A DNA stretch of 64,000 nt. Origin: an uncultured Gemmataceae bacterium. Its GTDB lineage: Bacteria > Planctomycetota > Planctomycetia > Gemmatales > Gemmataceae. Location of the stretch: contig CAVVPN010000012.1 in NCBI GenBank assembly GCA_963750165.1, forward strand, positions 672,001 to 736,000, written 5' to 3'. The position numbers and the translations under genes are program-made. Shown here piece by piece: positions 30,544-45,824 of this stretch (the stretch's first letter is position 1; every line of letters starts with the position of its first letter). Under the pieces are notes generated by a model that saw only the letters and a program-made list of their open reading frames with translations, searched no databases and was not told where the DNA came from.

Positions 30544-30700
30544 CTCGGTGGAGGATGCCGCCCCCGGATGGAGGCCGTGGCCGCAGCGTCACCGAGGAGC
30601 GCTTCGGCAGGAAGGAATGACAAAGGTGGCGCCTTCCAGGCGCAGTTGGGGAGTCGGGCGAGGAAGGGGAGCGAGCGGGGAGGGCGTCGAGTTCACACCT
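30499..30700 (-). ncRNA. Candidate ~200-nt small RNA with multiple CCUCC/CUCCC anti-SD-like motifs
   Basis: Lies between a consensus sigma70 promoter (30707-30735) and an intrinsic terminator; no credible ORF. Confidence 0.55.
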
Positions 30701-30706
30701 TGTACA

Positions 30707-30735
30707 AGGCTAGGTCGCAAACCGCGGCCTGTCAA
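30707..30735 (-). promoter_or_regulatory. Sigma70 promoter (minus strand)
   Basis: TTGACA (30735-30730)-17 nt-TAGCCT (30712-30707). Confidence 0.7.
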
Positions 30736-30770
30736 ACGGCGCGGCGCGGGGCGGCGCTGGCCGGCGCCGG

Positions 30771-30923
30771 TCAGCGGGCCTGGTTGGCCATGACCCAGAG
30801 CATGTAGGCGATGCGCTCGCGCAGGGTTTGTTCCCGTTTGACCCGGTCGGTGGCGTAGGCGCGCCACATGTAAAAGATGCTGGCCACGGCGAGCGCAGCG
30901 ATGGAGCAATTGACCAAGTGCAT
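30771..30923 (-). CDS. 50-aa small membrane protein (MHLVNCSIAALAVASIFYMWRAY...LRERIAYMLWVMANQAR)
   Basis: GAAGGA RBS; N-terminal TM helix; LRER.AYMLWVMA motif resembles a small planctomycete protein family. Confidence 0.7.
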   Translation of the reverse strand: MHLVNCSIAALAVASIFYMWRAYATDRVKREQTLRERIAYMLWVMANQAR

Positions 30924-31139
30924 GACACACGATCCTTCCGACGGGTTGCAGGGAAACTGAGCCGATGACAAAACCTAGCTCACGCCGTCAACCCAGGCAA
31001 CTGCCCAGGTGTGTTGATTTCCGCAAAAAAACCAGGGCCGAGCCGGTTGCTGGCCGGGCGGCGCCGCGGCCGTTAGCATGAGGAGGCCGGGGCCGCCGCG
31101 CGCGGGGCGACGCGGGCCGGCGGACGGGGGCGGCGATTC

Positions 31140-43126: not shown

Positions 43127-44421
43127 ATGCGTACCTCGCTTGACCGGCGTCGTTTCCTGCAAATGTCCACGGCGGCCGGCGCCGCCGTGCTGGCCCGCGC
43201 GACCCCGTCGCTGGCGGCCCAGCCGCGGACGCCGAACGTGGTGTTCATGATCGGCGACGATCAGGGCTGGAACGACTTCGGCTTCATGGGCCACAAGGTC
43301 ATCCGCACGCCGCGGCTGGACCGCCTGGCCGCCGAGAGCGCCGTCTTTCCACTCGGCTACGTGCCCAGTTCGCTGTGCCGCGCCAGCCTGGCGACCATCC
43401 TGACCGGTCTGTATCCGTACCAGCACCGCATCTGCTGCAACGACCCGCCCAAGGGAGTGGCGCGGGCAGAGATGCACCCGTTCATCAAGACCGCGCCGGC
43501 ACTGCCGCGGCTGCTGCGGCCGGCTGGTTATCGGAGTTTACAGACCGGCAAGTTCTGGGAGGGCCATTTCAGCAACGCCGGCTTCACGCACGGCCAGAGC
43601 AGCGACAGGGACCGCCACATCGCGCCGAAGCCGCAGATCGGCCGCGACACCATGCAGCCGATCTACGACTTCATCGACCAGAGCGGTCAGACGCCGTTTT
43701 TCGTCTGGTACGCACCGATGATGCCGCACCTGCCGCACACGCCGCCGCAGCGGCTTTTGCAGCACTACGCCGTCAAGGGCCGCGACCTGAACATCGCTCG
43801 CTACTACGCCATGTGCGAGTGGTTCGACGAAACCTGCGGCCAGCTGCTCGACCACCTCGACAGGCGTAAGTTGCGCGACAACACACTGGTGCTCTTCTGC
43901 ATTGACAACGGTTGGGTGCAGCCGACAGTACAGGAGGACAGGAAGAGCCCATTCGGGGCGCGCGCGGTAAACAGACGCCGTACGAGATGGGCATCCGCAC
44001 GCCGATCGTGCTGCGCTGGCCGGGCCGGGTCAAGGCGGGGCGGCACAACGAACTGGCCACGACCATCGACCTGACGCCGACAGCGCTGCGGGCGTGCGGC
44101 GTCAAGGTGCCGAGGGAGATGCGCGGGCTGGACCTGGTGGAACTGGCCGCGGGCAAGGCGCAGCAGAAGCGCGACGCCGTGTTCGGCGAGATTTACCAGC
44201 ACACGGCAACGAATTTGGGCAAGCAGCGGCTGGATGTGCTGTACCGCTGGGTGCGGACGCTCGACGGCTGGAAGCTGATCCTGCCCGCGTCGCCGAAGGA
44301 GCCGGTGGAGCTGTACGACCTGACGAAGGATCCGCACGAGAAGAATAACCTGGCGAAGACGCAGACGGCGCGCGTCAAGCAGCTGACGCAGCGCGTCGAG
44401 CAGTGGTGGGCGCAGAAGTGA
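43127..44421 (+). CDS. Tat-exported sulfatase family protein, frameshifted at ~43958-43966
   Basis: DRRRFL Tat motif; PNVVF..DDQG; TPRLDRLA; SLCRASLATILTG; TGKFW; DNG; the second frame continues GKQTPYEMGIRTP..RWPG...ELYDL..DP.E..NLA. Confidence 0.88.
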
Positions 44422-44643
44422 GCCGTCTTCCGCATTGGCGACCGGTGTGGTATGCTGAAAGGGGGGTGGAGGGAGGGTTTTCAGTTCGTCTCACAAACCC
44501 CTTTCCCACGCGACCAATTCCAGGGAAGGAAGCAAGGCAAGCCTCCGCGTAACCGGGTGACCGGTCCCCGCGTCGTTGGGACAATCTCGTGCGACCTCCT
44601 GTCGCCGTGGATTGCGGGACGGACGGGCTCTTCGCTCGTTTCG

Positions 44644-44736
44644 TCCCTTCGGCAGCCCGGCCGCCATGCCCGCTGGGGCGGGTTCAGGCCCGTGGCTTTG
44701 CGTCATCGGCTTTCGCCGAGTTTGCCCTTTCGAGGA
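44644..44736 (-). promoter_or_regulatory. c-di-GMP-I (GEMM-I) riboswitch aptamer
   Basis: Minus strand reads TCCTCGAAAGGGCAAAC-TCGGC-GAAA-GCCGA-TGACGCAAAGCCACGGGCCTGAACC...ATGGCGGCCGGGCTGCCGAAGGGA: GGGCAAAC, GAAA tetraloop, GACGCAAAGC and terminal GCCGA hallmarks. Confidence 0.92.
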
Positions 44737-44821
44737 TGAAAGGCGTTACGACGCAGGCGTGACGCAGAGGCTTGCCTCCAAAGGAGTGCCACCAGAACTG
44801 GCATTCCCCGTTGCTGCTACA

Positions 44822-44850
44822 ACTGTAGGTCAGAATCGCCTGCCGGGCAA
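44822..44850 (-). promoter_or_regulatory. Sigma70 promoter driving the riboswitch transcript
   Basis: TTGCCC (44850-44845)-17 nt-TACAGT (44827-44822). Confidence 0.6.
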
Positions 44851-44888: not shown

Positions 44889-45824
44889 ATGACTGCCGAC
44901 TTCCGCGACGCCTTCCTCCTCACCGGCCCGACCGGCTCCGGCAAAACGGCGCTGGCCCTGGAGCTGGCCGAGCGGCACGGCGCCGAAATCCTGTCGATGG
45001 ACTCCATGGCCCTCTACCGCGGTCTGGACATCGGCACCGCCAAGCCGACCGCCGCCGAGCGCCACCGCGTCCCCCATCACCTCATTGATGTGCTTGATCC
45101 CTGGGAGTCGGCCAGCGTCGCCTGGTGGCTCGACCGTGCCCGCGCCTGTGCCCGCGACCTCCGGAGCCGCGGCAAACGTGTCCTGATCGTCGGCGGTACG
45201 CCGCTTTACTTACGGGCGCTGCTCCAGGGATTGTTCGAGGGGCCGCCCGCCGATGCGGACCTGCGGCAACGGCTGGGCCAGGAAGCGGAACAGCACGGCG
45301 GCGCTGCCCTGCACGCCCGGCTGGCCGCGGTCGATCCGGCCGGCGCCGCCCGGCTGCACCCCAATGATTTGCGCCGCGTCATTCGCGCCCTGGAGGTCTG
45401 GGAGTTGACCGGCCGGCCGATCAGCGCCTGGCAGCAACAGTGGACCGACACCGCGGCGGACGCGGAGCCGCGGGCGTTTTGGCTTGACCTGCCGCGCGCC
45501 GCGCTGTACGAACGCATCAACCGCCGCGTCGAGCGCATGTTCGCCGAGGGACTGGTGGACGAGGTGCGGGCGCTGCGGGGCCTGCCGCGGCTGCTCAGCC
45601 GTGAGGCCGCCCAGGCCCTCGGCTACAAGGAAGTCTTCGCCCACCTGGACGGCCGGGAAACGCTGCAAGCGACCGTCGCCCGGGTGCAGACGCGCACGCG
45701 GCAGTTCGCTAAACGGCAAATCACGTGGTTCCGTCACCTGCCGGGCTGCCGGCCGGTCAGCAGCCAATTGACACGGGAGCTTTGGCGGACCACAATGGAT
45801 CAGGGGGGATGCCCGTCCAGTTGA
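44889..45824 (+). CDS. miaA: tRNA dimethylallyltransferase
   Basis: GPTGSGKT, DSM.LYRGLDIGTAKP, PHHLID, VGGTPLY, HPND.RR..RALEV, ALGYKE, TRQFAKRQ.TWFR. Confidence 0.97.
   Translation: MTADFRDAFLLTGPTGSGKTALALELAERHGAEILSMDSMALYRGLDIGTAKPTAAERHRVPHHLIDVLDPWESASVAWWLDRARACARDLRSRGKRVLIVGGTPLYLRALLQGLFEGPPADADLRQRLGQEAEQHGGAALHARLAAVDPAGAARLHPNDLRRVIRALEVWELTGRPISAWQQQWTDTAADAEPRAFWLDLPRAALYERINRRVERMFAEGLVDEVRALRGLPRLLSREAAQALGYKEVFAHLDGRETLQATVARVQTRTRQFAKRQITWFRHLPGCRPVSSQLTRELWRTTMDQGGCPSS

Follow-up and report, generated by a model that had tools for sequence, protein, structure and literature searches.

A conserved standalone RNA with a c-di-GMP-I aptamer in Gemmataceae, and its possible role as a ligand-gated sponge for a second RNA

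Riboswitches are taught as cis elements, and the few that lie within non-coding RNAs act through transcript length, transcript stability or proposed ligand storage. What, then, is the function of a c-di-GMP-I riboswitch that sits behind a promoter of its own on the minus strand of an uncultured Gemmataceae bacterium, pointing at a convergent gene? The riboswitch lies in a window (the whole stretch of DNA analyzed here) of 64,000 nt, positions 672,001-736,000 of the forward strand of contig CAVVPN010000012.1 in assembly GCA_963750165.1, hereafter the window genome (G000). An original prediction, made from the sequence alone, treated it as an orphan and offered three readings: a standalone c-di-GMP-binding RNA, a ligand-gated antisense RNA against the convergent sulfatase, or a switch for a micropeptide.

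The complete GEMM-I aptamer seen in that prediction is confirmed by Rfam, in which the region matches the c-di-GMP-I family (RF01051) at 79.2 bits over model positions 1-87 (gathering threshold 35; E = 6.4e-14), the sole Rfam family match in the window. The G20 and C92 equivalents had been called correctly and are accompanied by A at the A47 position (Table 1), and this G-A-C pocket is intact in 97 of 100 aligned copies. We take A47 to be a pocket position and assume the G20A rule for discriminating cGAMP; the intact pocket is then a signature of c-di-GMP rather than cGAMP, and the RNA that contains it, named RNA B here, very probably binds c-di-GMP. According to the available text of the cited study, G20 and C92 contact c-di-GMP (PMC11705072). 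Many copies score best to the c-di-GMP-I-GGC variant (RF03167) despite their A at the A47 position, an identity that was rejected because the RF03167 consensus has G there. Identity with 6S RNA (RF00013) or SRP RNA was also rejected, as neither matches the region and the genome's 6S and SRP RNAs both lie elsewhere; no further Rfam family fits the RNA B region. Within the aptamer, double-sided changes occur at all 6 pairs of P2, which has a GNRA loop, and at 9 of 13 pairs of P3 in a 62-sequence alignment. The core pairs of P1 can form in 61-62 of the 62 sequences but are invariant, and its outer pairs are broken in 8 and 15 of them.

RNA B is a predicted non-coding RNA whose window copy matches a covariance model of the family, R1, at 215.6 bits over model positions 1-293, this copy being in the model's training set. 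Its ends were placed by a conserved AGC 5-7 nt behind the -10 box and by a conserved GCU followed by a U-tract; homologues (median length 294 nt) start and finish in the same manner. The tail reads UCCUUC in the window copy and is U-richer in most homologues, and transcription would stop at this pyrimidine tract. The sigma70 promoter that had been proposed is present in the sequence. A simple sigma-70 scan scored 0 sites at this promoter, and TTG-N20-TA-N3-T spacing is found upstream of 123 of 126 homologues with a promoter call, the same pattern having been the search filter.

Table 1. Features of the RNA B locus, its neighbors and the RNA C copy of the same genome. Positions are those of the window unless a contig is named; partners and bases are listed as minus-strand positions where two numbers descend.
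Feature	Position	Strand	Basis and remarks
RNA B, predicted 291-nt non-coding RNA	44525..44815	-	model R1, homologues, inferred ends
Promoter	44822..44850	-	-35 TTGCCC 44850-44845, 17-nt spacer, -10 TACAGT 44827-44822; function inferred
5' hairpin H1, conserved 7-nt G-N-N-U-U-N-G loop 44798-44792	44779..44810	-	11/11 pairs with double-sided changes
Closing stem S1, 5' arm (partner 44550-44534)	44762..44778	-	16/17 pairs with double-sided changes; 90% of cells paired
Inner stem S2, 5' arm (partner 44575-44567)	44749..44757	-	9/9 pairs with double-sided changes
Hairpin A (CCUUUC/GAAAGG), predicted to bury G19/G20 and the P1 5' strand without ligand	44726..44743	-	MFE folds
c-di-GMP-I aptamer	44648..44736	-	RF01051, 79.2 bits; pocket G20/A47/C92 = 44726/44699/44652; C-rich P3 loop 44678-44675
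Hairpin B, P1 3' strand paired with C-rich strand in ligand-free fold	44616..44647	-	predicted fold; MFE of copies
12-nt C-rich strand (putative seed decoy), complementary to the invariant RNA C loop	44616..44627	-	sequence pairing
Variable hairpin, AGGAGG 44600-44595 in the window genome only	44579..44615	-	length and sequence vary across alignment A2
Side hairpin between S2 and S1 (three-way junction)	44551..44566	-	7/7 pairs with double-sided changes; 76-80% of cells paired
S1 3' arm, GCU pairing with 5' AGC, and pyrimidine tail (probable 3' end)	44525..44550	-	covariation, conserved ends
Convergent neighbor: sulfatase split over two reading frames, outside the element	43127..44421	+	Pfam Sulfatase and SGSH_C in different frames
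Divergent neighbor: tRNA isopentenyltransferase (miaA-type), outside the element	44889..45824	+	PF01715, E 3e-87
RNA C, window genome, different contig	G000:C11:~1681474-1681656 (L260:1390-1572)	+	P2 half lost; no Rfam match

The minus-strand fold is more stable than expected by chance, with an MFE z of -3.86 and 0 of 100 shuffles as stable. The inverted repeats around the aptamer are there as described (19 nt at 89% and 10 nt at 90%), and the predicted fold contains both the hairpin next to the aptamer (hairpin B) and the GCGAC/GTCGC hairpin with AGGAGG. The suggestion that the whole RNA forms one rod with the aptamer at its tip is borne out for the long-range stem and not for the tip, as the aptamer is one branch of a multibranch loop that also holds three further hairpins. 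Beyond the features recognized at first, the fold includes H1 and the side hairpin, and P1 is unformed in the predicted ligand-free state, being absent from the MFE structure. In alignment A2 (62 of 75 clean copies, trimmed to conserved ends and thinned to 85% identity), 60 of 82 pairs have double-sided changes, and 91% of alignment cells are paired, compared with 76% in shuffles and 35-49% in slid controls. The flanking stem, for which conservation and covariation among relatives had been named as a check, belongs to the best-supported part of the structure (S1 and S2, Table 1), and S1 holds the top mutual-information pairs. Covariation thus points to an RNA with the aptamer enclosed by long stems, formed between its two ends, that would stay constant across the ligand switch considered below. 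A census of the H1 loop motif returned 17 intergenic hairpins compared with 29 for the reversed motif, that is, no enrichment.

A DNA search of 40 relatives found similarity stretching well past the aptamer, and RNA B is not the orphan that it had been called: it belongs to a family conserved in single copy and probably has another RNA as its partner. A pattern scan recovered 120 stretches in metagenome contigs. The same pattern occurred in 32 of 92 genomes from the window's family, 1 of 9 from the sister family and 0 of 299 others of the class, always once. A separate scan of named genomes used a second gap narrower than the commonest spacing, and its 12 matches are an undercount. Five loci were set aside as chance matches (L027, L028 and L032 from the named genomes, L046 and L058 from the metagenomes). 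With R1, which was built from the 62-copy alignment, near-full-length matches of at least 110 bits were obtained in 83 of 151 family genomes, one full copy each; 79 genomes scored at least 150 bits and 4 scored 110-136, and ordinary aptamers stayed below 90. In a 141-genome sample of the class, full-length R1 matches were restricted to the window's order.

Several variants of this family deserve mention. One genome has a second, partial RNA B copy that is missing its 5' part (L235). Divergent or shortened copies (L251, L332, L335, L336, L337 and L232) have no hairpins A and B; what they keep is the aptamer, the C-rich strand and the C-rich P3 loop, with a true terminator at the end. Two records titled Alcaligenaceae (L026 and L033) carry a full RNA of planctomycete type, and their labels look doubtful. 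Other families of the class (L403-L418) mostly have a single c-di-GMP aptamer, flanked by long structured stretches and with a common long-range stem of GCAGGCC/GGCCUGC type, apparently in leaders of pilin-like genes. The window genome itself contains two more aptamers above the cut-off (L002 and L003), each directly before a Flp pilin gene. These two cis riboswitches share their aptamer and promoter types with RNA B, but each is followed by an ORF, and neither has the closing stems, H1 or the C-rich strand. Eight cis riboswitches before pilin-like genes (L002, L018, L021, L240, L244, L248, L254 and L255; the gene assignment is Pfam-confirmed for L002 and L003 only) have in common a 5' GGAUG-containing element that can pair with the P1 5' strand and is a probable anti-P1 switch.

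Could RNA B nevertheless be a cis element, acting as an attenuator or leader for the downstream gene, as an antisense switch on the convergent gene or as a micropeptide switch? We consider this very improbable. In its favor, the nearest downstream gene lies on the same strand at 79 of 115 loci (genes were called with a codon model trained on the window genome, and the tally still counts the chance match L058), an apparently secreted repeat protein family forms the largest downstream cluster with 19 of the 115 loci (L006, L013, L019, L026, L043 and 14 more), and antisense-oriented c-di-GMP riboswitches are common in a genome survey, as far as its available text goes (PMC9943018). Yet these downstream genes fall into 67 sequence clusters, and 36 of them are convergent; relatives have no fixed neighbor downstream. 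The closing stem and tail lie outside the switch region and are alike before genes of either orientation, a U-tract of at least 4 being present before 26 of 46 same-strand genes and 15 of 26 convergent ones. Neighbors this diverse, in both orientations and with the same tail before them, leave no room for a fixed target, whether in cis or antisense. In the window, too, antisense action on the sulfatase is not supported: the predicted 3' end at 44525 falls 104 nt short of the sulfatase stop codon at 44421, with no predicted overlap; more widely, convergent neighbors differ between genomes. A cis-acting riboswitch was likewise rejected for lack of a consistent co-directional gene, of a platform overlapping a terminator or ribosome-binding site, and of a conserved SD. 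As for the micropeptide, the AGGAGG lies in the one variable hairpin, where AGGAG or GGAGG occurs in 11 of 100 homologues and is followed by a start codon in 4 of 100; the 69-codon ORF has no Pfam match, and no ORF is conserved.

The sulfatase is frameshifted near 43970, reflecting either a pseudogene or an assembly error. The window genome also encodes a homologue of the repeat protein (G000:C12:385129-386139), unlinked to RNA B, and RNA B next to the repeat protein gene is perhaps the ancestral neighborhood.

With a promoter and an end of its own and no conserved ORF, RNA B is, we are confident, a standalone conserved RNA. The first of the three original readings therefore stands as regards the promoter, the closing long-range stem and the c-di-GMP-type pocket, and trans action is probable.

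Folding predictions suggest how the aptamer could control such an RNA. Without ligand, hairpin A would hide G20 and hairpin B would hide the C-rich strand, with P1 blocked: G20 is paired in the MFE of 85 of 85 copies, as are at least 8 of the 12 bases of the C-rich strand (hereafter the seed) in 84 of 85. Since hairpin A does not vary within A2, an alignment chosen in part by the motif of this hairpin, covariation lends it no support; in divergent copies it is changed. Hairpin B has one double-sided change. By the intact pocket and by analogy with work on the Vc2 aptamer, c-di-GMP would favor P1, which would take the 5' strand of hairpin B and free the C-rich strand. The two events are predicted to be coupled: P1 formation costs a median of 13.6 kcal/mol in the free RNA versus 4.8 with the seed occupied, and seed opening costs 11.1 in the free RNA versus 1.7 with P1 formed (n = 85). 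For the window's own RNA the P1 cost is 15 kcal/mol, which may exceed what ligand binding alone pays. A second helix (CRCC/GGYG) fits the P1-formed state and has 16 double-sided changes at one pair, the window's own copy carrying the one mismatch. S1 is identical in both predicted folds, and the switch region stops 90 nt before the tail.

A candidate partner for the freed strand, RNA C, was found among the weaker R1 matches and is present in about 97 of 151 family genomes (homologues L241-L253, L258-L327 and L399). This second standalone RNA consists of a promoter, an aptamer or P3 remnant with a GAGGGG loop, a loop-presented invariant G-rich 12-mer and an intrinsic terminator. Its aptamer is intact in some lineages and half lost in others, an H1-like hairpin recurs in many copies, and the 12-mer is identical in all 71 loci read. 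One locus (L286) has two RNA C copies in tandem, 1.1 kb apart. RNA C was found once without RNA B in another family of the class, and its exact 16-mer is absent from 298 of 299 genomes outside the family, the sole match being coding. As wholes, RNA B and RNA C are two RNA families absent from Rfam, and no description of either was found in a literature search that covered mainly openly accessible papers.

The sequence of RNA C suggests a regulator with other partners besides RNA B. A duplex ranking of 7525 predicted 5' regions, confined to the window genome, gave no stand-out target, and 365 sites in that genome pair fully with the 12-mer when G-U pairs are allowed. Upstream regions of 30 Flp pilins pair with RNA C no better than 400 sampled controls (median -16.2 versus -17.3 kcal/mol), and the one rRNA operon checked contains no RNA C site. 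A perfect complement near a csrA gene was dismissed as chance since it lies inside a coding frame, and CsrA binding looks unlikely, as RNA C has only two GGA words, both outside canonical hairpins (the genome has seven CsrA genes). At a ferritin-like gene (G000:C3:846939, plus strand), an 11-nt complement of the RNA C loop lies just before the ribosome-binding site; this is one of many candidates.

The RNA C 12-mer is the reverse complement of the C-rich strand of RNA B. Seed and 12-mer form 12 of 12 pairs in 85 of 98 RNA B copies and 11 of 12 in the other 13, counts that are somewhat inflated because the seed position was taken as the best match to the seed consensus, and the duplex with RNA C is stronger than that with RNA B's own strand in all 98. 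Seed variation among 141 copies is of a kind that preserves this pairing at several positions, with A or G (67 and 74 copies) opposite U, an invariant U opposite both A residues, and C or U opposite G. Breaks in RNA B's own partner strand are compensated in 0 of 109 cases, of which up to 9 may be one-base register shifts, and the seed is kept where hairpin B is lost (L251, L332, L335 and L336). No compensatory change between the two RNAs was seen. The RNA C 12-mer does not vary across the loci read, and the few pairing-disrupting substitutions in RNA B, to A at position 1 (15 copies) and to U at position 4 (3 copies), have no answering change in RNA C. Moreover, both strands descend from the same aptamer 3' strand, so complementarity could in part have been inherited from hairpin B itself. 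RNAcofold returned no pairing between RNA B and RNA C; a helix between two enclosed loops lies outside its model.

Across the 151 family genomes, 72 have both RNAs, 11 have RNA B only, 24 have RNA C only and 44 have neither. Later checks reassigned five of the RNA C-only genomes to both and one from neither to RNA C only: divergent RNA B was found in four of them and a fragment in one, a DNA search of five RNA C-only genomes found no RNA B, and the short seed pattern was too unspecific for finding divergent copies. A C-run in the P3 loop of RNA B occurs in 21 of 26 pairs where RNA C lacks its aptamer, compared with 3 of 26 where RNA C has kept it (7 pairs in which P3 could not be delimited were dropped). 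The RNA C-only genomes count against a partnership of the two RNAs, 13 of 23 of them having no c-di-GMP-I aptamer at all. As the genomes are related, a handful of events may underlie the association of the two RNAs with each other, and likewise that with the P3 loop. Taken together, sequence constraint and co-occurrence indicate that RNA B probably pairs with RNA C: the freed strand would pair over 12 bp with the RNA C loop and, where RNA C has lost its aptamer, the C-rich P3 loop of RNA B may contact the RNA C GAGGGG loop. RNA C on the seed would cut the P1 cost by about 9 kcal/mol, so that ligand and RNA C would stabilize each other in a two-way coupling.

Alternatively, the freed strand could bind something other than RNA C, either mRNAs with the same G-rich word or a protein. 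Near-matches to the 12-mer do follow other aptamers in several genomes, some pilin cis aptamers having 11 of 12 bases, and 11 of the 83 RNA B genomes have no RNA C match. Most of these 11 assemblies, however, are in hundreds of contigs, and several genera with RNA B as their sole model match still have RNA C. Pilin leaders show no enrichment for pairing with the RNA B seed, and variation of the wobble type is what one constant RNA partner with U at position 4 would allow, rather than a protein or many targets. A different partner for this strand is unlikely.

In bacteria, known sponge RNAs present a small RNA with a decoy complement of its seed and are controlled by their expression. RNA B likewise has a conserved stretch that can pair with the seed of a small RNA from the same cell; it would differ from known sponges in that its decoy site would be opened by a second messenger, and RNA C is itself a putative regulator. 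That RNA C is the regulator and RNA B the decoy is suggested by one contrast only, namely that the RNA C 12-mer is invariant and that of RNA B varies at wobble positions. Most tentatively of all the steps, high c-di-GMP would then switch RNA C off. We assign a probability of roughly 0.55 to this whole reading, in which RNA B is a c-di-GMP-gated sponge that turns RNA C off. The chances are about even for a fuller version, in which RNA B and RNA C form a two-RNA module, both derived from c-di-GMP riboswitches, the messenger opens the RNA B strand that captures RNA C, and in many lineages RNA B senses in trans for an aptamer-less RNA C, the two being joined by the 12-bp helix and a loop-loop kiss.

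The same pairing could serve another end if the complex itself were the output, or if RNA B protected or activated RNA C; it may be RNA C binding that allows the RNA B aptamer to fold, which would make an AND gate of ligand and RNA. The coupling is symmetric and P1 alone is costly (the 13.6 versus 4.8 kcal/mol above), the common promoter type means that both RNAs would be made together, the same H1-type hairpin is often on both, and a second loop-loop contact may be available where RNA C has no aptamer. Against such an arrangement, RNA C occurs without RNA B in at least 13 genomes lacking a detectable aptamer (13 of 23 RNA C-only genomes have no c-di-GMP-I aptamer of any kind), and its seed is more constrained than pairing with RNA B needs. 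Both observations imply that RNA C has a job independent of RNA B, and we regard the complex as an improbable output.

A further possibility, which we rate as quite unlikely, is that RNA B is a store or buffer for c-di-GMP and that its complementarity to RNA C is a by-product of shared ancestry. The precedent, and the closest known system, is merRNA of Bdellovibrio bacteriovorus, a 445-nt standalone non-coding RNA with a c-di-GMP riboswitch that is proposed to store its ligand (PMC3627812). Like merRNA, RNA B stands alone, contains a c-di-GMP riboswitch and has no conserved ORF behind it, and its closed ends and intact pocket would suit a store. In the available text of that report, merRNA is known from Bdellovibrio only, and its description, which sets it apart from RNA B, includes no enclosing covarying scaffold, gated strand or partner RNA (PMC3627812). 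A store, moreover, needs neither hairpins that block its pocket, such as those pairing G20 in every MFE fold, nor a strand conserved beyond its internal partner.

A weight matrix was built from 123 RNA B promoters, and at a threshold of 15 bits it finds 29 sites in the window genome, the RNA B promoter scoring 30.3 bits and RNA B and RNA C both ranking among the top six. The promoter type consists of TTGC or TTGA, 17 nt, and CTA-N3-T, with a purine four bases before the TA. Among 20 genes tested behind such promoters are 7 PilZ proteins, one kinase-receiver-HD protein and two sigma-factor-like proteins; two further matrix sites precede Flp pilins. The sites of this type include G000:C12:702737 and 703002 (about 30700-31000 in the window). 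Enriched for PilZ proteins, Flp pilins, kinases and sigma factors, the 29-site set points to a sigma regulon, as yet undescribed, that would serve a c-di-GMP and pilus programme. At least 15 bits on the RNA B matrix are reached by 44 of 71 RNA C loci, compared with 3 of 600 random upstream regions, and RNA B and RNA C would be co-expressed within that programme.

Sequencing runs offer a weak hint of transcription, as assembled contigs carry no strand, ends or level. A run search with an RNA B homologue (L164) returned five runs from three studies with small shares, four of which were examined; two of these are recorded as metatranscriptomes of one study and two are guessed to be RNA, so the comparison is among RNA-type runs only. 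Near-identical contigs differ from the homologue at 0 of 157, 1 of 177, 6 of 208 and 7 of 231 nt and fall inside L164:1442-1728, the predicted RNA of this homologue spanning 1434-1718; the flanks are covered only by short, unlike pieces. RNA B is likely transcribed as an RNA of its own of about 290 nt. At an RNA C locus, RNA-type runs gave only short pieces from relatives.

Trans-acting RNAs that contain riboswitches are known in SreA/SreB, EutX/Rli55 and AspocR, in which the ligand sets transcript length through termination. RNA B differs from these in that both of its predicted states are full length and the ligand would alter only the exposure of a strand. SreA is cited as a riboswitch-containing regulatory RNA in the available text of the merRNA report (PMC3627812). 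Closer in aptamer class, the Vc2 aptamer of Vibrio cholerae lies at the 3' end of sRNAs derived from the tfoY leader and controls their stability, according to the part of that study available (10.1101/617340). Both systems have a c-di-GMP-I aptamer that governs a non-coding RNA and not only an ORF, but RNA B is a gene apart, with the aptamer in its interior, and the predicted effect of the aptamer is to uncover a strand for pairing. The available text of the survey of antisense-acting riboswitches lists 152 c-di-GMP cases (PMC9943018). The window aptamer points at a convergent gene, so a survey of this type would count RNA B as antisense, although its orientation is incidental; some "antisense" cases may be standalone RNAs. 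The warning for genome surveys is that a c-di-GMP riboswitch listed as "orphan" or "antisense" is in some cases a gene in its own right.

If the proposed mechanism is true, the RNA B family regulates in trans under the control of its ligand, a natural case of a second messenger acting directly to bare a strand that can pair with a different non-coding RNA; ligand-gated capture, once shown, would be categorically new. For the planctomycetes, it would add the first concrete RNA layer to their c-di-GMP and pilus programme.
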